Of a stretch of 64,000 nt of DNA, positions 13,184-44,197 are shown one piece after another (the stretch's first letter is position 1; each line of letters begins with the position of its first letter). This DNA comes from an uncultured Actinomycetes bacterium. GTDB lineage: Bacteria; Actinomycetota; Thermoleophilia; Gaiellales; JALYLC01. The DNA is taken from positions 156,189-220,188 of the forward strand of contig CAVUPB010000009.1 of NCBI GenBank assembly GCA_963743275.1, written 5' to 3'. Below the pieces are notes generated by a model. The model saw only the letters and a list, made by a program, of their open reading frames with translations, did not search any database and was not told the DNA's origin. The position numbers and the translations under genes were made by a program.

Positions 13184-13202
13184 CAAGAAAATGTTGTTCT
13201 TG
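13184..13202. promoter_or_regulatory. Inverted repeat CAAGAA-N7-TTCTTG in AT-richer divergent region
   Basis: Lies between the small-protein start (13122) and the kinase start, in one of the few low-GC patches. Possible operator or promoter element. Confidence 0.25.
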
Positions 13203-13364
13203 AGGAGCAACGCTCCTGGAATCGCGGCAAGTCCCACGCCCGCTGGAGTGCTACTCCTGCGCGTCAGGCCGAGAGGAGGCGGCTGGGCGAGGCGCCCTGG
13301 CCGTGTGCCAGGGCGGCATGATGGTCCCGTGAGCGTGAGCGTGGCAACGACGGGTCTGCACCGC

Positions 13365-14738
13365 ATGACGGCTGCGGCCCGGCGCGGGGACCCGCGGCTC
13401 GGCGTGGCGGCGAGCGTTGGCGCGGTGGTGCTCGTCACCGGCGTGATCGGCGTGCTCGACGATTTCGTGCCGGTTCTGAGTCTGGGCGCGCTCTACGTCT
13501 TCGCCGTGTTGCCGATCGCGATCTTCTGGGGGCTGGCGTTCGCCGTGGGCGCGTCCGTTGCGTCCATGCTCGTGTTCAACTTCCTCTTCCTCCCGCCCGT
13601 GCACTCGCTCACGATGAGCGACTCGCGCAACTGGCTCGCGCTCGCCGTCTACGTCGTCACGTCCGCGGTCGTGAGCGAGCTGGCGGCGCGCTCGCGGCGG
13701 CGCGCGACCGAATCGGCCCTGCTCGCCGAGATCGCGCGGTCGCTGCTCGAGCGGGGGAGCGTGAACGGCGAGCTCGACCAGATCGCAGCAGGCGCGGCCG
13801 CTGCGCTCGGCGCCGGGGAGGCGCGGATCGAGCTGGGCGAGCCGTCGGAGAGGCTGCGCGCCGACAGCGATGCAACGCCGCTGATCGCGGGGTCGCGGCG
13901 CGTCGGCACGATCACGCTGCGCGGGCCGCGCTGGCCCTACCGCAAGTCGGAGTCGCCGCTCCTGCCGGCGCTCGCGTCGCTCCTGGCTGTGGCGATCGAC
14001 CAGGAGCGGCTCGCCGGCGAGGCGCTCGAGGCCGAGGCGCTGCGGCGCTCGGACGCGCTCAAGACGGCGCTGCTGCGCAGCGTGAGTCATGATCTGCGCT
14101 CGCCGCTGATGACGATCCTCACGTCCGCCTCCGCGCTCGCACGCAGCGATCTGAGCCTCGAGGAGGCGGATCGCAGCGAGTTGCTCGCGGGCATCCTCAG
14201 CGAGGCGCAGCGGCTCGACCGCCTCGTCTCCAACCTGCTCGAGCTCTCGCGCCTGCAGGCCGGCGCGGCCACTCCCGAGCCCCAGGTCTGGGCCGCCGAC
14301 AGCCTCGTCGTCCACGCCCTCAGCAGCCTCGGGCCGAGCGCCGATCGTGTCGACGTGACGCTCTCGGACAAGCCTCTGGTCGTGCGCGTCGACGCCCTCC
14401 AGATCGAGCGCGTGCTCGCCAACCTGATCGAGAACGCGGTCAAGTACTCACCCGACCACGCCGCGCGCGTGCTCGTCAGCTCGACGGGGCGCGAGGCGCT
14501 CGTGCGCGTGGTCGACCACGGGCCGGGCCTGGCGGCCGACGAGATCGAGCGCGTGTTCGAGCCGTTCCAGCGCGGGGCTTCCGGCGACGACGAGCGCGGC
14601 GCGGGCCTTGGCCTGGCGATCGCCCGCGGCTTCGCGGAGGCCAACGGCGGCCGCGTCTGGGCCGAGTCGCGCGCGGGCCAGGGTGCCACCTTCGTGCTCG
14701 CCCTGCCGATCGCCCAGGTCGCGGAGGAGGAGGAATGA
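13365..14738 (+). CDS. Sensor histidine kinase, KdpD C-terminal type (DUF4118 membrane module + HisKA + HATPase), no KdpD-N/USP
   Basis: DUF4118-like helices (LSLGALYVFAVLPIAIFWG, SMLVFNFLFLPPVHSL). H-box SVSHDLRSPL, with ANLIENAVKYS, DHGPGL and GAGLGLAIARG. Start uncertain (ATG 13365 or upstream GTGs). Confidence 0.85.
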   Translation: MTAAARRGDPRLGVAASVGAVVLVTGVIGVLDDFVPVLSLGALYVFAVLPIAIFWGLAFAVGASVASMLVFNFLFLPPVHSLTMSDSRNWLALAVYVVTSAVVSELAARSRRRATESALLAEIARSLLERGSVNGELDQIAAGAAAALGAGEARIELGEPSERLRADSDATPLIAGSRRVGTITLRGPRWPYRKSESPLLPALASLLAVAIDQERLAGEALEAEALRRSDALKTALLRSVSHDLRSPLMTILTSASALARSDLSLEEADRSELLAGILSEAQRLDRLVSNLLELSRLQAGAATPEPQVWAADSLVVHALSSLGPSADRVDVTLSDKPLVVRVDALQIERVLANLIENAVKYSPDHAARVLVSSTGREALVRVVDHGPGLAADEIERVFEPFQRGASGDDERGAGLGLAIARGFAEANGGRVWAESRAGQGATFVLALPIAQVAEEEE

Positions 14739-15445
14739 CGGGGGCACGCATCCTCGTCGTCGACGACGAGCGCCAGATCCTGCGGGCGCTGTCGACGAGC
14801 CTGCGCGCGGCGGGCTATACCGTCGACACGGCCGACACGGCCGCGGGCGCGCTCGCCGCTGCGGCGATGCGGCCGCCGGACGCGGTCATTCTCGACCTCG
14901 TGCTGCCGGACGGCACGGGCACGGAGGTCTGCCGCGAGCTGCGCACGTGGTCGAGCGCACCCGTGATCGTCCTCTCCGCGGTCGGGGACGAGCACGAGAA
15001 AATCGCCGCGCTCGACGCCGGAGCGGACGACTACGTGACGAAGCCGGTCGGCCTCGACGAGCTGCTCGCGCGCCTGCGCGCGACGCTGCGGCGCGCCGGG
15101 CCCTCGCTCGAGCCGGTGATCACCATCGGCGGACTCGTCGTCGATCTCGAGAAGCGCCTCGTCACCGTCGAGGGGCGGGAGGCAAACCTGACGCCACACC
15201 AGTTCGACATCCTGCGCGTCCTTGCTCGCGATCCCGGCAAGCTCGTGACGCATCGCGCGCTGCTGCGCGAGGTCTGGGGGCCGGGCTATGGCACTGAGTC
15301 GAACCTGCTGCACGTCCATGTGTCGCAGTTGCGTCGCCGAATCGAGCCCGATCCGGCACGCCCGCGCTATCTGATCACCGCGCCCGGCGCGGGCTATCGC
15401 CTCGTCGACCCGACGCGGCCGGAGGCGAACCCGGCCCGCGCCTGA
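14735..15445 (+). CDS. OmpR/KdpE-family response regulator
   Basis: ATGA overlap with the kinase. Receiver ILVVDDE...AVILDLVLPDG, winged helix LTPHQFDILRVLARDPGKLVTHRALL...VHVSQLRRRIE. Confidence 0.9.
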   Translation: MTGARILVVDDERQILRALSTSLRAAGYTVDTADTAAGALAAAAMRPPDAVILDLVLPDGTGTEVCRELRTWSSAPVIVLSAVGDEHEKIAALDAGADDYVTKPVGLDELLARLRATLRRAGPSLEPVITIGGLVVDLEKRLVTVEGREANLTPHQFDILRVLARDPGKLVTHRALLREVWGPGYGTESNLLHVHVSQLRRRIEPDPARPRYLITAPGAGYRLVDPTRPEANPARA

Positions 15446-15450
15446 GGCGC

Positions 15451-16800
15451 TCACGCCGATGGCGCAGTCTCGGTCGCACCCGCGTACGCGGCGGCAAGCG
15501 CGTCGTATCTGCGCCGGACGTCGGCGCGATCGACCTCCTCCGGCACCGTGGCATCGCATGCGCGCAGGATCATGTCGGCCTGCAGCATCAGGACGGGACG
15601 GCGATCGGCGTCCGTCGTCGCCTCCATGATCTTGGCCATCGCACTGAGCTGCCGGATCATGATCGCGGGCATGCCGCCGCTGGCTTGACGGATCTTCTCG
15701 AACGCCCGCTGCACGAGACGGTCGTAACTGGCCTCTGCGGTGATGACGCGCACGAATCCAGCCTGATCGCGCAGAACCCTCGGCGGATCCCACCGAGTCG
15801 CGATCTTGCAGAGGCTGTCGCCCAGCCAGTCCACGCACGTGACTGCCGTGAACGTGTCGTTGACGGCTGGAGACAGCGCGCGGATGGCGATCTCGACGAG
15901 CTGGTCGATGGCGAACGACAGGTCCTGGTTGAGCGTGCGGTGCGGGCCGGTGAAATGCATGCGCTCGAACCCGCGCGCCACGGCAGGCGCTGCCTCGGCG
16001 GGCCAGACCACCGCGAGCGGCGAGCCCTGGGTCATGAAATGGCCAGGGCGATGCACGAGTCTCACCACCGCCTGGTTGCGCGCCGCGATGGCCGTCAACG
16101 TGTCGTAGCGAACGAATTGCAGGTAGCCGCTGGTCGGCGCCATCACCTTCGAGCCGAACTCCTCGAGGCGGTGGCCGACCTCCATCAGCGACGGGCCGTT
16201 CTCGAGCGCTTCGCCTTCAGGGGCCTTTTCGGCGTCGATCGCGCGCGAGAGGTCGTGGGCGATACCCGCGATCACTTGCGGGAGTTGGATCGACAACGTG
16301 ATTCGGTGGATGAAGTAGATCAGCACGCCGAGATCCACGACGACGAGCGTCAGCGCCACGGTGATCGAGAGGTGCGGCACGAAGTCGCCGTGGGAACCGG
16401 GCGAGATCGAGACGAGGGCGAGGATTGCGTAAACGAACGTCGCGACGAACGTGCCGAGCGTCAGTTGCGTGGCGCGGTCGCGAATGAAGTTGCGGAGCAT
16501 GCGCGGCCCGAACTGGGTCGACGCGAGCGTCAGCGTCACGATCATGATCGAGAAGACCACGCCGACGACGGTGATGACCGCGGCCGCGAGCGCCGTCAGA
16601 ATCTGCCGCGCCGCGTCGGCAGTGCCGCTGATCGTCCAGGATGGCAGCGTCAGGTCGCCGCGATAGGCGGCGCGATCGATCGCATAGGTCACGGCGAAGA
16701 GGGCCACCGCGAGGGCCACCTCGAGACCTGGCACCAACCAGAGGTTCGTGCGCAGAGCCTCGCGGCGCCCCTCGGGAACGAGCGGCGGGCGGCGAGTCAT
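15451..16800 (-). CDS. DUF2254 family membrane protein
   Basis: 449 aa with N-terminal TM helices and the ASTQFGPRMLRNFIRD motif typical of DUF2254. Confidence 0.85.
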   Translation of the reverse strand: MTRRPPLVPEGRREALRTNLWLVPGLEVALAVALFAVTYAIDRAAYRGDLTLPSWTISGTADAARQILTALAAAVITVVGVVFSIMIVTLTLASTQFGPRMLRNFIRDRATQLTLGTFVATFVYAILALVSISPGSHGDFVPHLSITVALTLVVVDLGVLIYFIHRITLSIQLPQVIAGIAHDLSRAIDAEKAPEGEALENGPSLMEVGHRLEEFGSKVMAPTSGYLQFVRYDTLTAIAARNQAVVRLVHRPGHFMTQGSPLAVVWPAEAAPAVARGFERMHFTGPHRTLNQDLSFAIDQLVEIAIRALSPAVNDTFTAVTCVDWLGDSLCKIATRWDPPRVLRDQAGFVRVITAEASYDRLVQRAFEKIRQASGGMPAIMIRQLSAMAKIMEATTDADRRPVLMLQADMILRACDATVPEEVDRADVRRRYDALAAAYAGATETAPSA

Positions 16801-16904: not shown

Positions 16905-16967
16905 CCGCTCGCGCGATTCGAGGGGCGACCCTGAGGGATCTCCCCCTGGAGCTGCTCTTGCAGCAGT

Positions 16968-16985
16968 TTCTTCAGATCTTCTTAA
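16968..16985 (+). promoter_or_regulatory. Candidate KdpE-type direct repeat TTCTTCA-N4-TTCTTAA (11-bp period)
   Basis: AT-rich direct repeat centred ~65 nt upstream of ATG 17042, comparable in position to the E. coli KdpE site. OmpR-family regulators bind direct repeats at ~11-bp spacing. Confidence 0.3.
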
Positions 16986-17029
16986 GGCTCATCCGCCGAT
17001 CCTTCAGCCACGGTTCCGGAGCGCGGTCG

Positions 17030-17041: not shown

Positions 17042-17125
17042 ATGGCTGACATCGAAGCTCTCGCAATCGCGCTCGCCTGCTTCGCCTTCGCGTTCGCGCT
17101 CCTGTTCGCACTGGAGCGTGTGTGA
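17042..17125 (+). CDS. 27-aa hydrophobic peptide, KdpF-like, translationally coupled to kdpF
   Basis: MADIEALAIALACFAFAFALLFALERV. Its TGA overlaps the kdpF ATG by 1 nt. The ending FALERV echoes the kdpF ending YALLRGERF. GC3 is moderately high. Confidence 0.45.
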   Translation: MADIEALAIALACFAFAFALLFALERV

Positions 17126-17214
17126 TGGCCGCAGGCGACATCTTCGGGCTGATCGTCGCGCTCGGGATATTCATCTACCTCGTGTACGCGCTCCTTCGCG
17201 GGGAGCGGTTCTAG
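17125..17214 (+). CDS. kdpF: K+-transporting ATPase subunit F
   Basis: 29 aa MAAGDIFGLIVALGIFIYLVYALLRGERF (KdpF-type YLVYAL..E.F ending). Its stop abuts the kdpA ATG. Confidence 0.8.
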   Translation: MAAGDIFGLIVALGIFIYLVYALLRGERF

Positions 17215-18921
17215 ATGAGCGCCCAGGGCATCGCACAGATCGTCTTCTACGCCGTCGTCCTGACGGTGCTCGGCTACCCGCTCGGGATCTACATGTCCCG
17301 GATCTACGAGGCGGACACCGCCCCGGGTGGCCGCTTCCTCCGTGCGATCGAGCACCGCTTCCTGCGCTCCGTCGGCGTGCACGACCAGGAAAGCTCCGAG
17401 CAGACCTGGCAGGGCTACGCGAAGACGGTGATGATCTTCTCGGTCGTCTTCTTCGTCGCGCTCTACACGCTGCTGCGGATCCAGGGCCATCTGTTCCTGA
17501 ACCCGGACAAGATGAAGGGCGTCCCGTCGCCGCTCGCGCTGAACACGGCCGCGAGCTTCATCACGAACACCAACTGGCAGTTCTACGGCGGCGAGGCGAC
17601 GATGTCGTACCTCTCGCAGATGGCCGGCCTGGCGGTGCAGAACTTCGTCTCGGCCGGCGTCGGCATGGCCGTGCTCGCGGCCGTCATCCGCGGATTCTCC
17701 CGTCGCAACTCGGGCAGCATCGGCAACTTCTGGCGCGACCTCTACCGCTCGCTCGTCTACATCCTGCTGCCGCTGGCGTTCGTGCTGGCGCTCGTGCTCG
17801 TCTCGCAGGGTGTCGTGCAGACGTTCGACGGACACACGACGGCCACGACGCTCGAAGGGGCACATCAGACGATCACACGCGGCCCGGCTGCGTCGCAGAT
17901 CGCGATCAAGCAACTCGGGACGAACGGCGGCGGGTTCTTCGACTCGAACTCGGCCGTGCCGTTCGAGAACCCGAATGGCCTCACGAACTTCCTCGAGATG
18001 CTGGCCATCCTGCTCATCCCCGTCGCGCAGGTCTTCATGTTCGGGCGCATGGTCAAGGCGATGCGCCAGGCGGTCGCGATCTTCGCGGCCATGTTCGTGC
18101 TGATGGTCGCGGGCATCGGCATCTCGGTGCCGGCCGAGCAGCACGGCTCCGCGGTGCTACGGAGCTCGGGCGTCAACCTCGGCCAGACACAGCAGAGCGG
18201 CGGCAACATGCAGGACAAGGAGGTGCGCTTCGGCATCGCCAACAGCTCCCTCTGGTCGGTCGTGACGACCAACGCCTCCAACGGCTCCGTCAACTCGGGC
18301 CACGATGCCTATACGCCGGTCGGCGGTGCCGTGCCGCTCGTGAACATCTTCTTCGGCGAGGTGATCTGGGGCGGCGTGGGCTCAGGCCTCTACGGCATGT
18401 TCTTCTACGTCATCATCGCGGTCTTCGTGGCCGGTTTGATGGTGGGCCGCACGCCCGAGTACCTGGGCAAGAAGATCGAGGCGCGCGAGATCAAGTACGC
18501 CGCGATCGGGGCGCTGACGGTGCCCACGGTGGCGCTTGCGCTGACGGCGATCAGCATCGTCACGCATGGCGGTCTCGTGTCGCTCTACAACACAGGCGCG
18601 CACGGCTTCACGGAGGCGCTGTACGCCTACACGTCGCAGTCGAACAACAATGGCAGCGCCTTCGCGGGCTATGGCGGCAAGACGTTCTCCGAGCAGCTCG
18701 GCAGCATCGGGTTGTTCCTCGGTCGCTTCGCGCCGCTCCTGGCCGCGCTCGCGGTCGGAGGCTCGCTCGCCGCCAAGAAGACCGTCCCGGCATCGGCCGG
18801 CACATTCCGCACGGACGGCGGGACGTTCACCGTCCTGCTCATCGCCGTGATCATCCTCACCGCCGGACTGATGATCCTCCCGGCTCTCACGCTCGGGCCG
18901 ATCGTGGAGGCACTGCAGTGA
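17215..18921 (+). CDS. kdpA: K+-transporting ATPase subunit A
   Basis: 568 aa polytopic protein with the NTNWQFYGGE and TNGGGFF selectivity-filter-like motifs of KdpA. Confidence 0.95.
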   Translation: MSAQGIAQIVFYAVVLTVLGYPLGIYMSRIYEADTAPGGRFLRAIEHRFLRSVGVHDQESSEQTWQGYAKTVMIFSVVFFVALYTLLRIQGHLFLNPDKMKGVPSPLALNTAASFITNTNWQFYGGEATMSYLSQMAGLAVQNFVSAGVGMAVLAAVIRGFSRRNSGSIGNFWRDLYRSLVYILLPLAFVLALVLVSQGVVQTFDGHTTATTLEGAHQTITRGPAASQIAIKQLGTNGGGFFDSNSAVPFENPNGLTNFLEMLAILLIPVAQVFMFGRMVKAMRQAVAIFAAMFVLMVAGIGISVPAEQHGSAVLRSSGVNLGQTQQSGGNMQDKEVRFGIANSSLWSVVTTNASNGSVNSGHDAYTPVGGAVPLVNIFFGEVIWGGVGSGLYGMFFYVIIAVFVAGLMVGRTPEYLGKKIEAREIKYAAIGALTVPTVALALTAISIVTHGGLVSLYNTGAHGFTEALYAYTSQSNNNGSAFAGYGGKTFSEQLGSIGLFLGRFAPLLAALAVGGSLAAKKTVPASAGTFRTDGGTFTVLLIAVIILTAGLMILPALTLGPIVEALQ

Positions 18922-19502
18922 TCCGCACAACGGTTCGTTCCCTCATCGTCGTGGTCGTCACGACGCTCTTCTTCGGCGGCGTCTATCCGCTCGTCGTCAC
19001 GGGCATCGCCAAGGTCGCGTTCTCACACGAGGCCAACGGCAGCTTGGTCAAGAAGGACGGCAAGATCGTCGGCTCCGAGCTCGACGGCCAGGCCTTCGCC
19101 AAGGCGCAGTACTTCCACTCGCGCCCCTCGGCGACGAGCCCGGCCTACAACCCGGAGTACTCGACGTTCGCCAACCTCGGGCCGACCAGCTCTGCGCTGA
19201 CCGATCAGGTCAAGAAGGAGCTCGCCGGCGTCCTCAAGACCGAGGGCCCGTACAACCCCGGCCTCAAGGCCAGTGACATTCCGGTGGACGCCGTGACGAC
19301 CTCGGGCTCGGGGCTCGACCCCCACATCTCCCCGGCCAACGCGCAGCTCCAGGCGCACCGTGTCGCCGCAGTTCGGCACCTGTCCCTGGCGCGCGTCATG
19401 CAGCTCGTCAGGTCCCACACGGACGGGCGCAGCTTCAGCTTCCTCGGCGAGCCCGGCGTCAACGTGCTCGCTCTCAACCTCGCCCTCGACAAGGAGCACT
19501 AG
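18918..19502 (+). CDS. kdpC: K+-transporting ATPase subunit C
   Basis: GTG 18918 overlaps the kdpA stop (GTGA). [38 protein letters not shown] and [10 protein letters not shown] match E. coli KdpC along its length. Confidence 0.95.
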
Positions 19503-19504
19503 GC

Positions 19505-21565
19505 GTGGCACGCAGCTCCGCATCCATCTTCTCGCGCGACATCGTCATGTCGTCGATCCGCGCGTCCTTCCCCAAGCTCGATCCGCGCCTCCAGATCCGC
19601 AATCCGGTGATGTTCATCGTCGAGATCGGCAGCGTCATCACGACCGCGATCTTCGTCAAGCAGATCGTCCAGGGGGACACGAGCGGACTTTGGTTCGTCG
19701 CGACGATCGCGGTCTGGCTGTGGCTGACCGTGCTCTTCGCGAACTTCGCCGAGGCGATCGCCGAGAGCCGCGGCAAGGCCCAGGCCAGCGCGCTGCGGGC
19801 CACCCGCACGACGACGCTGGCGCACCGCCGGCGCGCCGACGGCAGCCTCGAGGAAGTCCCGGCGCCCGATCTCCAGAGGGGCGACGTGGTCGTCTGCGAC
19901 GCCGGCCAGGTCATCCCGGCGGACGGCGACGTGATCGAGGGCGTCGGCTCGGTGGACGAGTCGGCCATCACCGGGGAATCCGCGCCCGTCATCCGCGAGG
20001 CCGGCGGCGATCGCTCGGCCGTCACCGGCGGCACGCGCCTGCTCTCGGACCAGCTCGTGATCCAGGTCACGCAGGAGCCCGGGCAATCGTTCCTCGACCG
20101 CATGATCGCGCTCGTCGAGGGCGCCGAGCGGCGCAAGACGCCGAACGAGATCGCCCTCAACATCCTGCTCGCAGGGCTCACGATCACGTTCGTGGCGGCG
20201 GTCGTCACGCTGCGGCCGTTCGCCATCTATGCGCACACGCCGACCTCGCAGACCGTCCTGATCGCGCTGCTCGTCGCGCTCATCCCGACGACGATCGGCG
20301 CGCTGCTATCGGCGATCGGCATCGCCGGCATGGATCGCCTCATCCAGCGCAACGTGCTCGCGATGTCGGGCCGAGCGGTCGAGGCATCCGGCGACGTCGA
20401 CGTGCTGCTGCTCGACAAGACCGGCACGATCACGCTCGGCAACCGCCAGGCCACCGAGTTCGTCCCGCTGGACGGCGTCAGCGAGCAGGAGCTCGCCGAG
20501 GCGGCCCAGCTCTCGTCGCTCGCCGACGAGACGCCCGAGGGGCGCTCGATCGTCGTGCTCGCGAAGGAGAGGTACGGGCTGCGCGAGCGCGAGCTCGCGA
20601 GCCACGAGGCGATGTTCGTCCCGTTCTCCGCGACCACGCGCATGTCCGGGGTGGATTTCGACGGCAAGCGCCTGCGCAAGGGCGCGGCCGACTCCGTCAA
20701 GAAGTTCGTCGCCGAGAACGGCGGCTCGGGCGATGCGACACAGCTCGACGCCGAGGTCGAGAAGATCGCGCGTCTCGGCGGGACGCCGCTCGTCGTCGCG
20801 CAGGACAACTTCGTGCTCGGCGTGATCCACCTCAAGGACATCGTCAAGGGCGGCATGAGCGAGCGCTTCGACGAGCTGCGCCGCATGGGCATCCGCACGG
20901 TCATGATCACGGGCGACAACCGCGTGACGGCCGGCGTGATCGCCAGCGAGTCCGGTGTCGACGACTTCCTCGCGGAAGCCACGCCCGAGGCCAAGATGGC
21001 GCTGATCCGCGAGGAGCAGGCCCTGGGGCGGATGGTCGCGATGACGGGCGACGGCACGAACGACGCGCCGGCGCTCGCACAAGCCGATGTCGGCGTCGCC
21101 ATGAACACCGGCACGTCGGCGGCGAAGGAAGCCGGCAACATGGTCGACCTCGACTCCAATCCGACCAAGCTGATCGAGATCGTCGAGGTCGGCAAGCAGT
21201 TGCTGATCACGCGCGGCGCGCTGACCACGTTCTCGATCGCCAACGACGTCGCCAAGTACTTCGCAATCCTGCCGGCGATGTTCGCGTTCACGTATGGCAC
21301 CAACGGAGGGCGCGGGCCGCTCGACTCGCTCAACGTCATGAGCCTGGGCACGCCCAAGAGCGCGATCACGAGCGCGATCATCTTCAACGCGTTGATCATC
21401 CCGGCGCTCGTGCCGCTGGCGCTGAAGGGCGTGAAGTACCGCGCGATCGGCGCGACCGCGCTGCTGCGCCGCAACCTGCTCATCTACGGCGCCGGCGGGG
21501 TGATCCTGCCGTTCGTCGGCATCAAGCTGATCGACCTGATCGTGCACAACCTGCTCGGCGCTTGA
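19505..21565 (+). CDS. kdpB: K+-transporting ATPase subunit B (P-type ATPase)
   Basis: DKTGTIT phosphorylation motif with MITGDN and [11 protein letters not shown]-terminus ...[21 protein letters not shown] is KdpB-like. Confidence 0.95.
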
Positions 21566-21638: not shown

Positions 21639-22349
21639 TCAGGCGGTCTCGCTCTGCCCGTCGAAGAAGCGGTAGCCGAGGCCCGGCTCGGTCACGATCA
21701 GGGCCGGGTGACGCGGATCCTGCTCGATACGGCGGCGCAGTTGCGAGATCTGCACGCGCAGGTTGTCGGCGGCGGCGGCGTCCGGGTCGCCCCAGACCTC
21801 GGCCACGATGGCACGGTGGGTCAACAGCCTTCCGGGGTGACGCATGAAGCACGCGAGCAGCGCGAACTGCGTGCGCGTGAGCTGCACGGGCTCGCCGCGC
21901 ACGCGCGCCGTGTGCTCGGCGAGATCGAGCTGCACCGGGCCTCGCTCCATCCGCGCCGACTCGGCGCGGGCGTCCGCGGCATTGCCATGGCGGAGCGCCA
22001 CGCGCACGCGTGCGAGCAGCTCGCGCACCGAGAACGGCTTCGAGACGTAGTCGTCGGCCCCGAGGTCGAGCGCCTCGACCTTGACGGCGTCCTCGCCCTG
22101 GGCCGAGAGCACGATGATCGGCAGCGCCGGGTACAGCACGCGCACGCGGCGGATGACCTCGAAGCCGCTGACGCCGGGCAGGCCGAGGTCGAGCAGGAGG
22201 AGGTCGAACGCGCCGTTCGTGACGCGTGCGAGCGCATCCTCGCCGGTGAGCGTGGCCGTTACCACGTACCCCTGGGCCTCGAGTGCGATGCGCAGCGCGC
22301 GCAGGACGACCGGCTCGTCGTCGACGAGCAGGATCATCGGTCGCTTCAT
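21639..22349 (-). CDS. kdpE: KdpE response regulator (OmpR family)
   Basis: MKRPMILLVDDEP...LLLLDLGLPG receiver, C-terminal winged helix LTRTQFALLACFMRHPGRLLTHRAIV...LRVQISQLRRRIE. ATG 22349 overlaps the kinase stop (ATGA). Confidence 0.9.
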   Translation of the reverse strand: MKRPMILLVDDEPVVLRALRIALEAQGYVVTATLTGEDALARVTNGAFDLLLLDLGLPGVSGFEVIRRVRVLYPALPIIVLSAQGEDAVKVEALDLGADDYVSKPFSVRELLARVRVALRHGNAADARAESARMERGPVQLDLAEHTARVRGEPVQLTRTQFALLACFMRHPGRLLTHRAIVAEVWGDPDAAAADNLRVQISQLRRRIEQDPRHPALIVTEPGLGYRFFDGQSETA

Positions 22350-23861
22350 GCCGCGAGCGGCAGCTCGACGACGAAGGTCGCGCCGCCGCCCGCTGTGGGC
22401 TCGACGTGGATCGAGCCGCCGTGGGCCTCGACGAACCCTCTGCTGATCGTGAGCCCGAGGCCGGTGCCCATGCTGCTGTCGCGGCCCTTGCGCAGCCGGT
22501 AGTACGGCTCGAAGATGCGCCGGCGCTCGGCCTCGGGCACGCCCGGCCCGTGGTCGACCACCGAGATGCGCAGCGCGGTGCCCGTGCTCGTCGCGTACAG
22601 CCCGATCGCTTCGTCCCGGTCGGCGCGGCTCGCGTTCTCGAGCAGGTTCACGAGCACCTGGCGGATCATCGTCTCGTCGACGTTCACCGGCGGCAGCTCC
22701 GCGACGACGTCGACGTCGACGTACTGGCCTTCGAGCGCCGCCGCCGCGTCGTCGACCGCTGCGTAGAGCAGCTCGTCGACGGGCATCAGCGTGCGCCGGG
22801 GATGCAGCGCGCCGGCCTCGATGCGCGAGAGCTCGAGCATGTTGTCGACCAGCCGCGTGAGCCGGCGGGCCTCGGTCTCGATCCCGCCGATCAGCGCCTC
22901 GCGCTCGTGCTCGGGCACGCTCTCGCGCAGGGCGGAGGCCGATGCGGTGATCGCCGTCAGAGGGGTGCGCAGGTCGTGCGAGACGGACTGCAGGAGCGCG
23001 GTGCGCAAGCGATCCGTCTCCTTGAGCGCCTGCAGCATCACGCCCTCGTGCTCGAGGCGGGCGCGCCCGAGCGCGAGGCCGAGGATCCCGCAGAACGACT
23101 CCAGCACCGCCACCGTCTCGCTGTCGATGCGCCGGGTCCCGGTGTCGGCGGCGAGGTAGCCGAACGTGATGCCGCTGTCGGCGATCGGCAGTGCGAGCAC
23201 GCCGCCCTCGCCGCGCAGCGCGACGAGGGCGGGTCCGTCGGCCGGGCTCATGGTCTGCTCGAGGTGCGCACCCGCGGCGTCGTGCGTGCCCACCCGCTCG
23301 TCGAGCTCCTGACCGCGCACGGCGACGCGCAGCGCGGCGCCGCGCAGGGCGAGGCCCTGCGGTGATGTCGGCCAGCGTCCTGCGCAGCGCGGGCCGCAGG
23401 TCGTCGGTGCGGATCAGGTCGGTCGCCAGCGCCTGCAGCATCTCCATGCGCAGCGCGCGTCGCTTCGCCGCTGCGCTCGCCGACCGGAAGCCGCCCACGT
23501 AGTTGGCGAGGACGACCGCGATCAGCGTGTAGATGATGAAGGCCGCAATGCTCGCGGACGCCTCGATGCGGAACGAGTAGTACGGGTGGGTGAAGAGGAA
23601 GTTGAACGTCAGCGCACTGACGAGCGCGAGCGCGAGCGCGAGGATGCGCCCGCCGTTCGTGGCGATCAGCGGCGGCAGCAGCAGGACGAGCGCGAACGTC
23701 CCGGTGTCGAGGTCGTCGCGCGCGGGCAGCAGCACGGCGACGGCGACGATCAGCATGAACAGCGACGCCGCGCCCGCCAGCGCACCGCGCCAGGCCGCCT
23801 CCTCGTCGAGCTCGGGGAGATGCCGGCGGATCGCAGCGACGGTCTGTGCGCGCGCGCTCAC
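22346..23861 (-). pseudogene. kdpD: KdpD C-terminal half: DUF4118-GAF-HisKA-HATPase kinase, reading frame broken once near 23353
   Basis: Frame A (23861 down) encodes the DUF4118 helices ...LVSALTFNFLFTHPYYSFRIEAS...RTLADITAG. Frame B continues LALRGAALRVAVRGQELDERVG...SVSHDLRTPL...GLGLTISRG to stop 22346. Length is 3n+1, so an extra C in GGGCCTC is implied. The 5' start (GTG 23861) is uncertain. Confidence 0.8.
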
Positions 23862-24028
23862 GACGACCAGCGCGTCGCGCGCACGAGGTGTCGCTGCGGC
23901 ATGCCGCCCATGATGCCGCACATGGTCACGGCTCGACCGTACAGCGCGCGCGTGAAGCCGCGCCAAAGGATGCGCGCGAACGTCTGAAGCGCGCCTAAAG
24001 CCGTCGCGCCACGGGCGGTCGCGGAGCC

Positions 24029-24034
24029 TAGACT
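24029..24034 (+). promoter_or_regulatory. Candidate -10 hexamer TAGACT, 6 nt before GTG 24041 (leaderless geometry)
   Basis: TAnnnT. The GGGAG directly abutting the GTG is too close to act as an SD. Confidence 0.35.
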
Positions 24035-24040
24035 CGGGAG

Positions 24041-25136
24041 GTGGCGGCTCCGCTCCAGGTTGCACGCGGATTCCTGCGCATCTACCTCGGCGCGGCCGCC
24101 GGCGTGGGCAAGACCTACCAGATGCTGGGGGACGCGCGCCTCGCCGCCGAGGAGGGCACCGACATCGTGATCGGCTATCTCGAGCCGCACGGGCGCGTCG
24201 CGACCGAGGAGCGCGCGCGCGGCCTCGAGGCCGCGCCCGTGGTGCGCTACGGATCGGGCAGCCGCGCCGAGACCGAGCCCGATGTCGCGTGGCTGATCGA
24301 GCGCCGTCCGAGCGTCGCGATCGTCGACGAGCTGGCGCACACGAACCCGCCGGAGGCGCCGCGGCCCAAGCGCTACGACGATGTCGCCGTCCTGCTCGCG
24401 AACGGCATCGACGTCTGGACGACCGTCAACATCCAGCACCTCGAGAGCCTCGGCAACCGCATCCGCTCGCTCACCGGAGTCGAGGTCCGCGAGACGTTCC
24501 CGGATCGGCTCCTGCACGAAGCCGACGAGATCAAGCTCGTCGACCTCAGCCCGGCATCGCTGCGCGAGCGCATCGCGCGCGGTCTCGTCTATCCCACGGA
24601 TCGCGTCGAGCAGGCGCTGACGGGCTTCTTCACGATCGAGAACCTCACCGCCCTGCGCGCGCTCGTCCTGCACGAGCTCGCCGAGGTCGCGGCGGCGCAT
24701 CTCGACACGACGAATCCCGACGCGCGGCCGAGCGAGCGGGTGCTCGTGGCGATCAGCGCTCGCCGCGACTCGTACGCGATCCTCATCCGGAACGGCGAGC
24801 GCCTGGCGCGCCGCAGCGACTCCGAGCTCTACGTGCTGTACGTCGAGCCTCCGGGCGGCCGCAACGGACGCGGACACCGCGCGCGTGCTCGCCGACGCCG
24901 AGGCGCTCACGCGCTCGCTCGGGGGCGTCTTCCTGCGCCGGCGCGCCGAGAACCCGGCGAGCGAGATCATCCGCGAGGCGGAGGCCCAGCGCATCACGCA
25001 GATCGTCGTCGGCAAGAGCCGCCGCTCGGGTCTGCGCCTGCGTCTCGGCGGCTCGCTCGTCGAGGCCGTGCTGCGCGGCACCTCGGGCATCGACGTGCAC
25101 GTCGTCGACGATCAGGCTCCGCGCGCCGGCGCGTGA
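24041..25136 (+). pseudogene. Stand-alone KdpD N-terminal sensor domain + USP domain, reading frame broken once near 24859
   Basis: RIYLGAAAGVGKTYQML...VDELAHTN...WTTVNIQHLESL matches KdpD-N. The USP domain ERVLVAISARRDS...ELYVLYVEPPGG then continues in the +1 frame as ATDADTARVLADAEALTRSLGG...GIDVHVVDDQ. Length is 3n+1. Confidence 0.8.
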
Positions 25137-25208
25137 GAAACCCGCACGGCGCGCGCCGTGCATCCGGTAGCCTCGCGCCGTGCCGGCCATCACGTACGAC
25201 GGGTCGGC

Positions 25209-28200
25209 ATGAGCGCGCCCGGGCGCAGCTTCAAGCGCACGCTCGTCGGCCGCCGCATGCCGATGGGCAGCCTCGAGGACGAGCTGCTCCCGCGCTGGGT
25301 CGCGCTCCCGATCTTCGCCTCGGACCCGCTCTCGTCGGTGGCCTACGCGACCGAGGCGGGACTCGTCGTGCTCGTCGCCACCTCGCTGACCTCCCGCGGC
25401 CTGATCGTGCCGATCTCGGCGGTCATCGCGGCGTTGCTGGTGATCGTCGTCCTCTCGTATCGCCAGACGATCTTCGCCTACCCCAACGGGGGCGGCTCGT
25501 ACGTCGTCGCGAAGGAGAACCTCGGCCAGACCGCGGGGCTCGTGGCTGCGGCGTCGCTGCTCACGGACTACGTCCTGACGGCTGCCGTGTCGATCGCGTC
25601 GGGCGTGCTCGCGGTCACCTCGGCGGTTCCCGAGCTCTCGTCGCATGCCGTCGAGCTGAGCCTCGGCGTGCTCGTCGTGCTGGTGCTCGTCAACCTCCGC
25701 GGCGTGCGCGAGTCGGGCTTCGTGTTCGCGCTGCCCACGTACGGCTTCATCATCGCGATCGGCGCCACGATCGCGGTCGGCTTCGTGCGCGGGATGGTCA
25801 GCGGCTGGCCCACTGCGCACGTCCCCGACCCGGCCCAGGCCGGCCTGGCAGGCGGCGTCGGCCTCGTCGTGCTCCTGCGCGCGTTCGCGTCGGGCTGCAG
25901 CGCCCTGACGGGCGTCGAGGCGATCTCGAACGGCGTGACCGCGTTCCGCCGGCCGCAGGCGCGGAACGCCGCGAGCACGCTGATGTCGATGGGCGTGATC
26001 GCCGTCGTGCTGTTCCTCGGCGTCTCGGTCCTGGCCTGGAAGATCGACGCGCGGCCGAGCGGGTCGGTCTCGGTGCTCTCGGAGATCGCTCGCGCCGTGT
26101 TCCCGCCCGGGGGGTCGTCGTTCGGCTACTACGCCGTGCAGGCGACGACGGCCGCGGTGCTCGCGCTCGCCGCCAACACGGCGTTCCAGGGCTTCCCGCG
26201 CCTCGCCGCCCTGCTCGCGAGCGACAGCTTCCTGCCCCGGCAGTTCTCGAACCTCGGCGACCGCCTCGTCTACTCCAACGGCATCCTCGTGCTGGCCCTG
26301 GCGGCCGGCGCGCTCATTGTCGGGTTCCACGCCGACGTGCTCAGCCTGATCCACCTCTACCTGCTGGGCGTGTTCACGGCGTTCACGCTCTCGCAGTTCG
26401 GCATGGTGCGGCACAACTGGAACCGCCGCGCATCCGTCGTCTCGGCGCGTTCGCTCGTCTATCCGATCGCGCTCAACGCCACCGGCGGCCTCCTCACCGG
26501 CCTCGTCGGTGCGGTCGTGATCGCGACGAAGTTCGGCGAGGGCGCGTGGATGGTGATGATCGCGATCCCGACGCTCGTGCTCGGGTTCGTCGTCGTCGGC
26601 CGGCACTACGCCGACGTGCGCACGCGCCTGCGCGACCCGGGGGGCGCCTACGCCGCGGTGCGCGGGCCGGTGGTGCTGTACGTCAGCGCACTCGACGATG
26701 CGACCGCAGCGGCGCTCCGTTACGTGCGCTCGATCGCGGGCGACCGCTACCAGGCGATCCACGTCGCCGATCCCGCGGGCGTGACCGGCATCGCCGAGGC
26801 CTGGCGCGGGTTCAGCGGTGACGGGCCTCCGCTCCTGTCCCTGCCGCGCGAGCGCACGGTCTCGGGCACGGTCGCGCGCCACGTGCGGGAGCTCGAGCAC
26901 GGCCCCGGCGAGGTCACCACGCTGGTCGTGCCGGAGCTGTTCAAGCGCAGGTCGCTGCTCGCGATCGTGCGCGGCCGGACGACGCTCGCCCTGCGTCTGC
27001 GGCTGCAGGGCGAGGAGGACGTCGTGCTCGCCGATGTCCCCGTCGTGGCCGGCTCCACGGGCGTTCCGCGCCCGCGCTCGGGCGAGGGGCGCACCAGCGT
27101 CCTCCTGCCCATCGCCGAGCTCAGCGCCGCATCGCGCCACGCGCTCGGATACGCGCTCGGCCTCGGGAGCGAGCATGTCCTCGGCCTGCACGTCGAGCTC
27201 GGCGCCGACGACGTGTCGCAGACCCGCGCGGCCTGGGCCGCGCGGGCCCTGCCGATCCCGGTCAAGGTCGTGCCGTCGCCCTATCGCGACCTCGGGCAGC
27301 CGCTGCTCGCCGAGATCCGCGCGATCACCGCCGACCCCGACGCGGTCTGCGTGGTCGTCATGCCCGAGATCATCAGCCCGCACCGCTGGCAGCGGATCCT
27401 GCACAACCAGCGGGCGCTGTTCATCAAGCGGCTGCTCCTGTTCGAGGAGCGTGTCGTATTGACGAGCGTGCCCTATCGCCTCCCGGAGGCGGGCGAGGTT
27501 GCGCCCGCGACCCCGGACACGGCGGGCGCACTCGAGCGCGCGCGGGAGTTCGCCGTCCCGAGCGCGCCGCTGCGGTCTCCGGGCATTGCGGTCGAGCGCG
27601 CGGCTCGTGCGCCCGCTGCCCCCGAGCCGCGGATGTCGACCGAGGCGATCTGGCGCGCGTTCGAGGGCTTCGCGGGCTCGCTGGCGCTGCTGGCGGTCAC
27701 GCTCGTCGGTCTGCTGCTGCTGCGCGACCACCTGAGCGCCGAGACGGTTGCGCTCGTCATGCTCCTGCCCCCGCTCGTCGCGGCGCTCTCGGGCCGCGCG
27801 CTCGCGCTCGTGATGGCGGCCTTCGGCGCGCTGCTCTTCAACTTCTTCTTCCTGAAGCCGTACTACTCGCTCTCGATCGAGAGCAGCGACAGCATCGGCG
27901 CCTTTCTCGCGTACGCGTCGGTGGCGATGCTCGTCGCGATCGTCGCGGGGCGCCTGCGGCAGGCGCGGGCCGATGCCGACCGGCGCATCCGCCAGGAGCA
28001 GGTGCTGCACGACGTCGCGCTCGCCCTGCTCGCGGGTGAGACGCGCGAGGATGTCCTGCGCGCGCACCTGCAGCGCCTGGCGGATGCGCTCGGCGTGAGC
28101 GCGGCCGCGACCGTCGACGGCACGCGTGCGATCGTCGCCGGCGATGCCGCGCCGGCCCTGCTGCGCGCCGAGCTGCAGGGCGTCCGCTACCACGGTGCGG

Positions 28201-28373
28201 CGTTCGGCGAGCGCGGGCGCATCGTCATCGACGGCGGGCTGCGTCTCGGCCGCGCGCAGATCCAGGTGGCCGACACGCTCGCCCGCCTGCTCGACGCCGG
28301 GCGCGCCGGTTGCGGGACATCCGCGGACGGCGGCGCTCAGGTGTCGTCGACGCGCACCTCGTCGGACCCCTGA
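25209..28373 (+). CDS. KimA-type (APC-fold) K+ importer with two tandem cytoplasmic domains fused to DUF4118 membrane module + GAF-position domain (no kinase)
   Basis: One frame of 1054 aa. Motifs DPLSSVAYATE, YPNGGGSYVVAKENLG, FASGCSALTGVEAISNG and ISPHRWQRILHNQRALF match remembered B. subtilis KimA. From ATG 27633, helices ...FGALLFNFFFLKPYYSLSIESSDSIGAFLAYASVAMLVAIVAG align to the DUF4118 of both kinases here. Confidence 0.8.
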   Translation: MSAPGRSFKRTLVGRRMPMGSLEDELLPRWVALPIFASDPLSSVAYATEAGLVVLVATSLTSRGLIVPISAVIAALLVIVVLSYRQTIFAYPNGGGSYVVAKENLGQTAGLVAAASLLTDYVLTAAVSIASGVLAVTSAVPELSSHAVELSLGVLVVLVLVNLRGVRESGFVFALPTYGFIIAIGATIAVGFVRGMVSGWPTAHVPDPAQAGLAGGVGLVVLLRAFASGCSALTGVEAISNGVTAFRRPQARNAASTLMSMGVIAVVLFLGVSVLAWKIDARPSGSVSVLSEIARAVFPPGGSSFGYYAVQATTAAVLALAANTAFQGFPRLAALLASDSFLPRQFSNLGDRLVYSNGILVLALAAGALIVGFHADVLSLIHLYLLGVFTAFTLSQFGMVRHNWNRRASVVSARSLVYPIALNATGGLLTGLVGAVVIATKFGEGAWMVMIAIPTLVLGFVVVGRHYADVRTRLRDPGGAYAAVRGPVVLYVSALDDATAAALRYVRSIAGDRYQAIHVADPAGVTGIAEAWRGFSGDGPPLLSLPRERTVSGTVARHVRELEHGPGEVTTLVVPELFKRRSLLAIVRGRTTLALRLRLQGEEDVVLADVPVVAGSTGVPRPRSGEGRTSVLLPIAELSAASRHALGYALGLGSEHVLGLHVELGADDVSQTRAAWAARALPIPVKVVPSPYRDLGQPLLAEIRAITADPDAVCVVVMPEIISPHRWQRILHNQRALFIKRLLLFEERVVLTSVPYRLPEAGEVAPATPDTAGALERAREFAVPSAPLRSPGIAVERAARAPAAPEPRMSTEAIWRAFEGFAGSLALLAVTLVGLLLLRDHLSAETVALVMLLPPLVAALSGRALALVMAAFGALLFNFFFLKPYYSLSIESSDSIGAFLAYASVAMLVAIVAGRLRQARADADRRIRQEQVLHDVALALLAGETREDVLRAHLQRLADALGVSAAATVDGTRAIVAGDAAPALLRAELQGVRYHGAAFGERGRIVIDGGLRLGRAQIQVADTLARLLDAGRAGCGTSADGGAQVSSTRTSSDP

Positions 28374-39428: not shown

Positions 39429-41869
39429 CTACCCCTGCGCCACCCACTCGACGATCTGCTCGGCCGTGATCGGCAGCGACGTGACCTGGACGCCGTAGGG
39501 CGACAGCGCGTCCTCGATCGCGGCGCTCATGATCGCGGGCGAGAGCATGCGGCCGCCCTCGCCGGCCCCTTTGATGCCGTACGGGGTGTAGGGCGACGGC
39601 GTCTCCTGGTGGTCGACGGTCATCTCGGGCACATCCATCGACGACGGCAGGTGGTAGTACTCGAAGTCTGCGTTGAGGACGCGGCCCTGGTCGTCGTACT
39701 TGTATTCCTCGAGCAGCGCCGTGCCGAGCCCCTGCACCGTGCCGCCGATGATCTGGCCGTCGAGCGTCTTCGGATTGACGATCGTGCCGGCGTCGTGCAC
39801 CGCCGCGTAGCGCAGGAACGTGAACTTGCCGGTCTCGGGATCGACCTCGATGACGGCGATGTGCCAGGCGTGGCCGACGAAGGGGTAGAAGATGCCGAGA
39901 TCGGAGCGGTCGGCGTTCGGCAGCGTCGTCAGGGGGTGGTCGTAGGTCGACTGCGAGGCGAGGCCGCTCTCCATGTCGGGCGGCAGGTCGAGCCGGAACA
40001 GGTACGCGCTGAGCGCGATCTCGGCGAGCGTCAGCTGGCGGTCGGCGACTCCGCGCACGCCCACCGCGCCGTCGCGGAACTCGAGGTCGCCCTCGTCGAC
40101 CTCGAGCTTGTGGGCGACGAGGCGCTTGATCTTGTCCTTCAGCTGCGCCGCGGCGCCCGCCACCGCGCCCGAGACCATGACCGTGTAGCGCGAGCCGCCG
40201 GGGCCCGTGCCGGGCAGCGCGTGCTGCGAGTCGGCGTAGGTCACCGTGATCGACTCCGGCGCGACGTCGAACTCCTCCGCCACGACCTGGGAGACGACGG
40301 TCTCGGGGCTGTTGCCCCAGAGCGACTGCGAGTGCAGCGTGACGACGATCTGGCCCGTCGGGTCGATCTGCAGGCTCGCGCTCTCGGGGCTCGAGGTCGG
40401 CGTGAACGCGGGCTGGTCGAACCAGAACCAGAATTCCGTCGAGGAGAAGACGCTGCGCTCGTTCGATGCGACAACGCCGATGCCGACGTGCCGGCCCTCC
40501 GCGCGTGCGCGCTCGCGCTCGGCCACCCAGTGGTCGTAGTCGACCGCTGCGAGCACCTTGTCGAGCACGCCCTCGTAGTTGCCGCTGTCGTAGATGTTGC
40601 CGGTCGGCGTGCGGTACGGGAACTCGCCGGGCCCGATCAGGTTGCGGCGCCGGATCTCGACGCGGTCGACGCCGAGATCCTGGGCTGCGAGATCGACGAG
40701 CCGCTCGAGCACCCAGTTGCTGACCTCCGCCCCGAAGCCGCGGTAGGCGCCCTGCTGGTTCTTGTTCGTGAGGATCGCGGCGAGCCCGTACTCGACGTGC
40801 TGGATCTGGTACGGGCCGACGATCTGCGAGAGCGAGTTCCCGTGCGTTCCCGTGCCGAACTGCAGGTACGCGCCGTAGTCGTCCACGCACTGGATGCGCA
40901 GCGCCTGGAAGCGGCCGTCGTCGTCGAACGCGAGCGCGGCGTCGTAGTGGCGATCCGACCCGCAGTGGTCGTTGTTCACGATGTGCGTGACGCGGTCTTC
41001 GACGTACTTGACGGGGCACCCGGCGAACATCGAGAGGAAGCCCGCGAGTATCGGCACCTTGTGCATGAAGAACTTCGAGCCGAAGCTGCCGCCGGCCGCG
41101 ACGGGCACGAGGCGCAGCTTGCTCGCCGGGATCTTGAGCGTCGCGGCGAAGAGCCACAGGAAGTACGTGAAGTTCATCGAGTTGGCGTAGATCGTGCAGA
41201 CGCCGGTGCCGCGGTCGAAGTCGCCGATCGCGCCGTTGGTCTCCATCGGCATGCCGGTCGAGCGCGGCCAGTAGAGCTTGGCCTGGACGCTGCGGTCGGC
41301 GTCGGCAAAGGCCCTGTCGACCTCTCCGAACGAGAACGTGCGCTCGTAGGCGACGTTCGTTCCGAGCGATTCGTGGACGAGCGGGCCGCCCTCCGTGCGC
41401 GCCTCGAGCGGGTCGAGCACGACGGGCAGCTGCTCGTAGTCCACCTCGATGAGATCGCAGGCGTCCTCGGCGACGTAGCGGTTCTCGGCGACCACCGCGG
41501 CCACGGCCTCGCCGAAGTGGCGCACCTTGTCGACCGCGAGCAGGTCCTGCGAGATCCCGCCGAAGGACGGCAGGGGCGCGACGCGGTCCGCGAGGTCGCG
41601 CCCCGTCACGACCGCGATCACCCCGGGGAGCCGCTCGGCCGCCTCGCTGCGGATCGCGACGATCTTCGCGTGGGCGTGGGGCTGCGCACGATCGCCGCGT
41701 GCGCCATGCCGGGCAGCTTGATGTCGTCGATGTAGCGGCCCTCACCGCGCAGGAAGCGCGGGTCCTCGACGCGGTTGATGCTCTTGCCCAGCCAGCGCCG
41801 TGTGGCGCCATCCTCGCCGGCGGTCTCGCGCGCGACCTTGGCGGCGTTCGGATCCTGCTCGATGATCAT
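39429..41869 (-). pseudogene. Xanthine dehydrogenase/CoxL-family molybdopterin-binding large subunit, frame broken once at 41678-41681
   Basis: N-terminal 64 aa (MIIEQD...GKSINRVEDPRFLRGEGRYIDDIKLPGMAHAAIVRSP) are in one frame and the remaining 730 aa (IAVVTGRDLAD...) in another. Adding one C to the C4 run restores HAHAKIVAIRSEAAERLPGV. GGGAGGA RBS. Active-site region GAYRGFGAEV. Confidence 0.85.
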
Positions 41870-42375
41870 TGGGATCCTCCCTCGCCTGCCCCGACGACGA
41901 CCTGCGAGGCGGCCTGGATCGCCTCGACGATCTGCTGGTATCCGGTGCAGCGGCAGAGAACGCCGCTGATCGCCTCGCGGATCTCCTCGGCGCTCCCGCC
42001 GCCGGGGTGCGCGCGCATGAACTCGACCGCCGTCATCAGCATCGCGGGGGTGCAGAAGCCGCACTGCAAGGCGTGGTGCTCGGTGAACGCCTGCTGCAGC
42101 GCGCTCAGCGTCCCGTCCCGCTCGGCGAGGCCCTCGACGGTCTCGACGGAGTGCCCGTCGGCCTGCACCGCGAGCATCAGGCACGAGCGGATGCTCTGCC
42201 CGTCGAGCAGGACGTTGCAGCTGCCGCAGAAGCCGTGCTCGCAGGCCAGGTGCGTACCGGTGAGGTCGAGGTCGTCGCGCAGGAAGTCGGCGAGCGAGCG
42301 CCGGGGCTCCACGCTGCCTTCGCGCCAGGTGCCGTTGACCTGCATGCGCACGGGGTAGGCCTGCTCGGCGCTCAC
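41866..42375 (-). CDS. (2Fe-2S)-binding small subunit (CoxS-like)
   Basis: CEHGFCGSCNVLLDG and CGFCTPAML...CRCTGY cysteine motifs. GTGA overlap upstream and ATGA overlap downstream. Confidence 0.9.
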   Translation of the reverse strand: MSAEQAYPVRMQVNGTWREGSVEPRRSLADFLRDDLDLTGTHLACEHGFCGSCNVLLDGQSIRSCLMLAVQADGHSVETVEGLAERDGTLSALQQAFTEHHALQCGFCTPAMLMTAVEFMRAHPGGGSAEEIREAISGVLCRCTGYQQIVEAIQAASQVVVGAGEGGSQ

Positions 42376-44109: not shown

Positions 44110-44169
44110 GCCGTCGGGTACGAGCCGCGCCGCAAGGGGAACCGCGCCTGATCGCCCCGGGGACACAGA

Positions 44170-44197
44170 AGCGGGCGGCGCTTGCGCGCCGCCCGCT
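44170..44197 (-). terminator. 12-bp GC hairpin downstream of family A copy 2
   Basis: AGCGGGCGGCGC-TTGC-GCGCCGCCCGCT. The left flank ACAGAAGCGGGCGGC is shared with the hairpin at 12639. Its position supports stop 44223 as the authentic end. Confidence 0.55.

Follow-up and report, generated by a model that had tools for sequence, protein, structure and literature searches.

A probable two-chain KdpD regulator among the potassium-uptake genes of a Gaiellales bacterium

The DNA analysed here, 64,000 nucleotides (nt) of contig CAVUPB010000009.1 from an uncultured soil bacterium (hereafter the window, about 72% G+C), carries genes for two K+-uptake systems, the KdpFABC pump and a KimA-type importer, together with a KdpD regulator whose domains are divided between two divergently transcribed genes. 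We consider it probable that this is the known two-chain KdpD regulator, lying inside a K+-uptake island in a bacterium of the Gaiellales (Thermoleophilia). Under this reading, a soluble KdpD-N/Usp serine kinase of 364 amino acids (aa), encoded by the gene that we call short kdpD, would phosphorylate the TGES serine of the pump subunit KdpB and so shut KdpFABC off when K+ is sufficient, the Usp domain probably acting as the input, perhaps through a bound nucleotide messenger. The second chain, the membrane histidine kinase HK1, with transmembrane (TM), GAF-like, DHp and CA domains, would act with the overlapping response regulator RR1 to give K+-dependent transcriptional control. Short kdpD and HK1 are independent genes across the lineage, amid a shuffled gene order, rather than the outcome of a local split; in the clade of the window the serine-kinase gene lies directly upstream of the KimA gene, probably on one transcript. 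The features concerned are as follows, "repaired" meaning that one surplus base has been removed from the gene.

24041..25136, + strand: short kdpD (KdpD-N and Usp; PF02702 and PF00582), predicted atypical serine kinase; repaired product 364 aa
22346..23861, - strand: HK1, KdpD-type membrane histidine kinase (DUF4118 TM, GAF-like region, HisKA, HATPase_c); repaired product 504 aa
21639..22349, - strand: RR1, OmpR/KdpE-type response regulator (Response_reg 6.1e-31, Trans_reg_C 3.1e-22)
23862..24040, no strand: divergent control region, 179 bp (alignment of four assemblies)
25137..25208, + strand: spacer between short kdpD and kimA, 72 nt (terminator scan, fold z=-1.4)
25209..28373, + strand: KimA-type K+/H+ symporter with sensor tail, 1054 aa (PDB 6S3K, E=4e-112; DUF4118, 2e-17)

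Domain content of the two chains

In Pfam searches the repaired short KdpD contains a complete KdpD-N domain (PF02702, E=7.8e-76, profile positions 2-208 of 210) followed by a Usp domain (PF00582, E=1.5e-11), in agreement with the original prediction for the + strand at 24041-25136. The protein matches PDB 2R8R at E=5.6e-54 and is 92% identical to an intact 364-aa protein (P0001). Its Walker A motif (GAAAGVGKT, G17-T25), the Walker B residues D96/E97 and R177 are invariant in 12 homologues. R177 corresponds to R190 of the adenine pair W39/R190, and W39 is represented by Y26, as it is by tyrosine in the Pseudomonas syringae structure 2R8R. The chain stops after the Usp domain and has no TM, GAF or DHpCA domains. 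As an atypical serine kinase, KdpD-N inhibits KdpFABC by phosphorylating Ser162 of KdpB (Silberberg et al. 2024, PMC11018627). In the window, KdpB residues 156-159 read TGES (E158-S159) and are the predicted substrate; short KdpD may thus be viewed as a putative KdpB serine kinase, its activity, target and input signal being proposed from its likeness to the characterised proteins.

The repaired HK1 has significant matches to DUF4118 (3.6e-15), HisKA (4.2e-17) and HATPase_c (1.2e-24), with an H-box reading SHDLRTP. The GAF domain that had been proposed as a fourth component on the - strand at 23861-22346 falls below the Pfam cut-off (PF01590, E=0.08); the region in question nonetheless aligns with GAF-bearing KdpD-type sensors, and the orthologue in locus L084 yields a weak GAF_3 match. 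Intact 504-aa orthologues occur in loci L002 and L086, at 82% identity. Both products belong to the KdpD family by Pfam.

The boundaries of the two genes were correctly anticipated. Short kdpD starts at GTG 24041 and HK1 at GTG 23861, on either side of the 179-bp region; the HK1 stop overlaps the RR1 start in ATGA (22349-22346), RR1 itself being convergent with kdpB; and the KimA-like gene begins at ATG 25209, 72 nt past the stop of short kdpD (TGA 25134-25136), its product being 100% identical to P0121 (1054 aa). All the domain types of full-length Escherichia coli KdpD, GAF in the form of a GAF-like region, are present in the locus; unlike in E. coli, they lie on opposite strands with separate starts and stops. 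Since they are carried by separate polypeptides, the K+-sensing TM/GAF part cannot control KdpD-N in cis.

Interrupted reading frames

The original prediction treated both ranges as intact genes. They are not: HK1 spans 1516 nt and short kdpD 1096 nt, and its having missed the breaks is explained by coordinate ranges that are not multiples of three. Each frame breaks once, and neither gene has an intact reading frame in this assembly. We compared both with the intact orthologues of L002 (a 504-aa kinase and a 364-aa short KdpD, at about 82% nucleotide identity). Relative to intact orthologues, short kdpD has exactly one extra base at about 24860-24864 and HK1 exactly one at about 23353-23357, in a GGGCC context. 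The GTG frame of short kdpD covers the whole of KdpD-N and the beginning of Usp and loses sense after "...YVLYVEPPGG"; a second frame, ending at TGA 25134-25136, encodes the remainder of Usp ("...TDADTARVLADAEAL...GIDVHVVDD"). Likewise, the DUF4118 frame of HK1 ends after "...RRTLADITA", and the GAF-like region, HisKA and HATPase_c follow in a different frame to the stop at 22346. Deletion of one base per gene restores open reading frames (ORFs) of 504 and 364 aa that reach the native stops.

Both insertions are most likely assembly errors, an origin that we judge, from the comparison of orthologues, likelier than pseudogenisation on four grounds. Each gene has a single one-base lesion and no additional stops. 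The ratio of nonsynonymous to synonymous substitution rates (dN/dS), with L002 and L086 as references, is 0.16-0.23 ahead of the shifts and 0.12-0.36 beyond them, with no sign of relaxed selection. Other genes in the window are broken too: a plot of G+C content at third codon positions (GC3) by frame flagged only the two kdp-regulator frameshifts, and the Pfam check revealed at least one more, missed by that plot, in the large subunit of a CO/xanthine dehydrogenase. Finally, the sister assemblies carry scattered indels of their own: kdpE is broken in both L002 and L086, at different bases; kdpA, kdpB and kdpC are also broken in L086; and L001 has many indels. Gaps in blastn alignments against L086 were too noisy for frame-breaking indels to be counted.

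Two further propositions were abandoned. The idea that only the kdp regulators are frameshifted was dropped, the dehydrogenase large subunit being broken as well. Programmed +1 frameshifting was rejected, as the two sites share no motif and the orthologues lack the additional base. In the dehydrogenase gene the break lies at about 41618-41830, where the Ald_Xan_dh_C domain is split between the ORFs 41618-42184(-) and 39429-41621(-). Elsewhere in the window, a LysR-type regulator at 43738-45900 is cut to its helix-turn-helix domain (123 aa), after which about 1.8 kb contain neither a clean ORF nor a Pfam match and are possibly decayed or mis-assembled.

Separate kdpD genes across the lineage

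The original prediction viewed KdpD as split locally, and this is not borne out: separate chains are the rule in the lineage and a catalogued version of KdpD. Among the 120 best homologues of the N-terminal half, all 120 contain KdpD domains (usually with Usp) and nothing else, most being about 360 aa long, and each of the 120 is closed by a stop codon of its own. A profile search of genome contigs with a short KdpD alignment listed no match above 48% identity, and the placement in Gaiellales is taken from the names attached to homologues. Among the genome loci listed, the short form is found in 39 of 80, including all 10 from Solirubrobacterales, Gaiellaceae and Thermoleophilaceae, and also those of cyanobacteria, Chloroflexota and Paenibacillus; the form found in Streptomyces and Nocardioides is fused and 830-900 aa long.

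Comparative genomics thus found the short form to be common and the gene order to be shuffled among relatives, where short kdpD occurs in all orientations with respect to the kinase and to kdpFABC. In L085 (57% identity) short kdpD, kinase and regulator stand in tandem with a 2-nt gap; in L084 short kdpD stands alone, divergent from kdpFABC-HK-RR; and in L083 it is followed by a regulator. Because the short form occurs throughout the lineage loci and the positions of the genes vary, separate genes are, on this distribution, the ancestral state of the lineage. The layout of the window itself, with regulator and kinase leftward and short kdpD and the KimA fusion rightward, recurs in L001, L002 and L086, which come from three other samples, and the divergent arrangement is therefore real. 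One cluster with 51 member sequences (P0117) has a 508-aa KdpC-KdpD-N-Usp fusion, in which the serine-kinase module is joined to a pump subunit; by its domain composition this fusion ties KdpD-N/Usp to the Kdp pump.

The literature agrees with a two-chain arrangement. KdpD-N/Usp and separate TM/GAF/DHpCA chains are among the common versions of KdpD, and split kdpD genes are reported in Deinococcus radiodurans, Anabaena and Alicyclobacillus (Silberberg et al. 2024, PMC11018627). The window shares with that two-chain class the same domain partition, its GAF part being a GAF-like region, the catalytic motifs of KdpD-N, a KdpE-type regulator and the KdpB TGES serine. It differs in coming from a Gaiellales actinobacterium, whereas the main phyla of the class are Acidobacteriota and Chloroflexota; in having two kinase/regulator pairs; and in a serine-kinase gene placed ahead of a KimA gene instead of behind the pump genes or the kinase. 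In Anabaena and D. radiodurans the N-terminal and kinase parts likewise lie on separate genes. In Alicyclobacillus acidocaldarius, according to the part of Schleussinger et al. (2006) cited in PMC11018627, kdpD is also split between N-terminal and kinase genes, across "two divergent kdp operons". As far as the cited text describes these three systems, their short gene comes after the pump genes within the kdp operon, unlike that of the window, which is outside the operon beside kimA. By its description, the short KdpD of Deinococcus geothermalis (Q1J2K3) is also a KdpD-N plus Usp protein of about 360 aa, and it phosphorylates KdpB and is stimulated by cyclic di-AMP (c-di-AMP) (PMC11018627).

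The pump genes and a second kinase/regulator pair lie to the left of the divergent genes:

17125-17214, + strand: kdpF (translation)
17215-18921, + strand: kdpA (translation)
18918-19502, + strand: kdpC, GTG start (translation)
19505-21565, + strand: kdpB, with the predicted TGES target serine Ser159 (translation)
13191..15445, + strand: second kinase/regulator pair, HK2 (DUF4118-HisKA-HATPase) and RR2 (OmpR-type) (Pfam)

Homologues of the kdp genes at 17125-21565 are present in related loci. Two KdpD-type kinase/regulator pairs flank kdpF-A-C-B, and "the kinase half", which had been taken to be single, is ambiguous, the HK2/RR2 pair lying beyond kdpFACB at 13191-15445. The HK1/RR1 family is linked to short KdpD in L083-L085 and L090; RR1 is 61% identical to the kdp-linked regulators of L083 and L084, and the HK1 orthologue of L084 sits in kdpFABC-HK-RR. 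In Gaiellales and Solirubrobacterales loci, members of the HK2/RR2 family (50-65% and 67-79% identity) as a rule precede kdpFA(C)B-short kdpD, and RR2 is 55% identical to Streptomyces KdpE, against 45% for RR1. HK2/RR2 are an equally good or better candidate for the kdp-linked pair.

Several details of this neighborhood are recorded as side observations. The kdp order of the window, F-A-C-B, with L085 and L092 listed alongside it, is not the canonical F-A-B-C, an order found in L083 and L084; here the kdpC start (GTG 18918) overlaps the kdpA stop. Directly 5' of kdpF, a 27-codon hydrophobic ORF (MADIEALAIALACFAFAFALLFALERV) occupies 17042-17125, its stop overlapping the kdpF start in TGATG. 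A DUF2254 gene (15451-16800, opposite strand) sits between the HK2/RR2 pair and the kdp operon.

In the alignment of the four assemblies, the 179-bp control region contains two conserved direct repeats, TGAAG-N6-YAAAG, at 23953-23968 and 23985-24000 (32 nt apart), and, separated by 6 nt from the short kdpD start codon (GTG), an invariant TAGACT (24029-24034). Its position suggests that TAGACT could be a -10 box for a leaderless mRNA, with a regulator-dependent promoter; a scan of the region for a sigma-70 consensus promoter found nothing. Motif counts showed TGAAG-N6-YAAAG to be absent upstream of kdpF and in more distant loci, and it therefore cannot be called a KdpE box. Upstream of kdpF (16960-17010) there is a TGAAG-N27-TGAAG, with the same 32-nt period and on the opposite strand.

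The KimA fusion and alternative readings

The gene downstream of short kdpD aligns over the whole transmembrane domain of Bacillus subtilis KimA (PDB 6S3K, E=4e-112; see also 8B70). Its product keeps the K+ site residues D36, Y43, T230 and Y377 and, of the c-di-AMP pocket defined for KimA (PMC10284832), R337, P479, V506, H579, N580 and Q581; S582 is replaced by arginine. Two additions also set it apart from B. subtilis KimA: a further PPAT-like domain and, at the C-terminus, a TM/GAF module of KdpD type. The cytosolic PPAT-like domains, two in tandem, occupy residues of about 485-758 (window 26660-27485); only the second aligns with the cytosolic domain of B. subtilis KimA and has the H-N-Q c-di-AMP pocket. 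The last 246 residues (window 27633-28370, residues of about 809-1040) form a KdpD-type TM/GAF sensor without kinase domains. This tail is 45% identical to HK1 over 152 aa (E=1e-21), and hhalign (99.9%) pairs tail residues 2-228 with HK1 19-268, the tail ending where DHp begins; it is, by these alignments, a paralogue of the TM/GAF sensor of HK1. Fusions of about 1040 aa extend only down to about 63% identity, remoter homologues being 745-785 aa long and lacking the tail. The full-length fusion has a single representative among 1.84 billion and forms essentially one 50%-identity cluster, assigned to Gaiellales where named. A search of metagenome contigs with the fusion tail yielded at least three loci. 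In the literature searched we found no paper connecting DUF4118 with KimA.

Linkage of short kdpD to the fusion is conserved close by and loosens with distance. Short kdpD is followed by the KimA fusion in the window, in L001, L002 and L086, and in five more contig pairs common to both homologue lists (43615, 55203, 8823, 13236 and 211978 bp). In L090 the trio of short KdpD (65%), kinase and fusion (66%) is still clustered, with the short gene on the other strand; in L091 the fusion has no kdp genes nearby; and in L092 an unfused KimA is divergent from Usp-HK2-RR2-kdpACB-short kdpD. Unfused KimA-like genes stand near kdpDE in many Streptomyces and other Actinomycetota, the distance in Streptomyces being a few kb. 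In the window the Usp and KimA frames are identical and are separated only by TGA 25134-25136, and a terminator scan of 25137-25208 gave none evident (fold z=-1.4). The spacer is variable; in L086 (10001-13534) it is deleted, giving one 1177-aa short KdpD-KimA ORF, with the caveat that this assembly is error-prone. We infer that the KimA linkage reflects a conserved K+ island, with co-transcription conserved only in the clade of the window. Re-association of KdpD-N/Usp with KimA, as originally proposed, therefore holds as regards the conserved tandem within the clade and not as regards the target: the established target of KdpD-N is Ser162 of KdpB, not KimA, and the N-terminal half is for that reason more readily understood as regulating the Kdp pump from within a K+ gene island.

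Control of the unit by a second messenger, also part of the original prediction, is plausible, since the D. geothermalis short KdpD is stimulated by c-di-AMP (PMC11018627) and the pocket residues of KimA are conserved. The part of the argument that drew on Staphylococcus aureus fares less well. The Usp domain of S. aureus KdpD is a c-di-AMP receptor (PMC4686210, PMC8214093), and the window protein has a Usp fold at the same place after KdpD-N; its loop, however, reads A-I-S-A-R-R-D-S-Y against the motif (A/G/C)XSXSX2N(Y/F), with S246 replaced by arginine and N249 by serine. Even the 92% identical orthologue does not keep S244. The alternative motif SXS-X20-FTAXY is represented by LYVLY, and region I of the Usp domain resembles the E. 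coli type RXXXR-X8-WXAVY. With phmmer, short KdpD gave no match to the solved S. aureus Usp domain. Rfam returned no match at the gathering threshold over the whole 64 kb, and none at E<=1 over 16.5-25.4 kb; no c-di-AMP (ydaO) riboswitch is therefore detected. A regular-expression search for diadenylate-cyclase motifs found nothing convincing within the window.

Three points weigh against a functional two-chain regulator dedicated to the Kdp pump. The absence of the S. aureus c-di-AMP motifs from the Usp domain bears on its supposed input signal. Two frameshifts within 1.5 kb, in functionally linked genes, could represent real inactivation, and HK2/RR2 could make HK1 dispensable. Furthermore, the tight conserved tandem and the KdpD-sensor tail on KimA hint at a link to KimA that lies outside the published model. 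If the second point were taken at face value, both genes would be true pseudogenes and kdp control would be left to HK2 and RR2, a redundant pair whose family is usually kdp-linked. This we regard as unlikely: each gene bears a frame-breaking insertion, yet only one, with no more stops behind it; dN/dS is the same beyond the lesions; orthologues at 82-92% identity are intact; and unrelated genes of the window are frame-broken as well, as are genes of the indel-bearing sister assemblies. Still less can be said for an assembly inversion at about 23.9-24.0 kb that artificially separated a single kdpD gene. This was checked and is ruled out by the same layout in three other assemblies from different samples; the conserved, promoter-like 179 bp between the two starts and the short form's own stop in all 120 best homologues also speak against it, and we hold it to be extremely improbable.

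The third point leads to a reading, an extension of the original prediction, in which short KdpD has been recruited to KimA and, together with the TM/GAF tail, constitutes a disassembled KdpD without its kinase, making KimA uptake and/or KdpB phosphorylation dependent on K+ and c-di-AMP. In its favor are the tandem of the window, L001, L002, L086 and the five contig pairs, the clustering of the trio in L090 at 65% identity, a tail paralogous to the sensor of HK1 and reaching no further than the start of DHp, the single ORF of L086, the conserved c-di-AMP pocket of KimA and the stimulation of a short KdpD by c-di-AMP (PMC11018627). Nevertheless, in L090 short kdpD lies opposite to the fusion, and in L091 the fusion has no kdp genes nearby; KimA-like genes elsewhere stand near kdpDE without being fused, and the neighborhood may simply be a K+ island; the single ORF comes from an indel-rich assembly; and action of KdpD-N on KimA is without precedent, the Usp domain lacks the known c-di-AMP motif and no ydaO riboswitch was found with Rfam. 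Recruitment to KimA is, on balance, doubtful, and we favor the two-chain Kdp regulator set within a K+-uptake island.

It is tempting to speculate further that the short kdpD-KimA operon brings all the non-kinase parts of KdpD (KdpD-N, Usp, TM and GAF) together again around a K+ importer. The tail of KimA might then serve as a docking site for the serine kinase and/or associate with the homologous sensor of HK1. KdpB phosphorylation and kdp transcription would in that case both be governed by the transport state of KimA or by local K+. We think this improbable.

Taken together, the division of KdpD seen here adds only a lineage, the Gaiellales of the Thermoleophilia, to a published class of architecture. 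It does have a consequence for annotation: the short gene is better described as a putative KdpB serine kinase than as "sensor histidine kinase KdpD", and a review of the two genes for frameshifts is called for. What appears to be new is the KimA-TM/GAF fusion beside short kdpD. If its tail is functional, the fusion would amount to a natural experiment on a KdpD sensor module transplanted onto a transporter. Indeed, were the rebuilt operon to work as speculated, KimA would be a co-sensor coordinating the medium-affinity and high-affinity K+-uptake systems.

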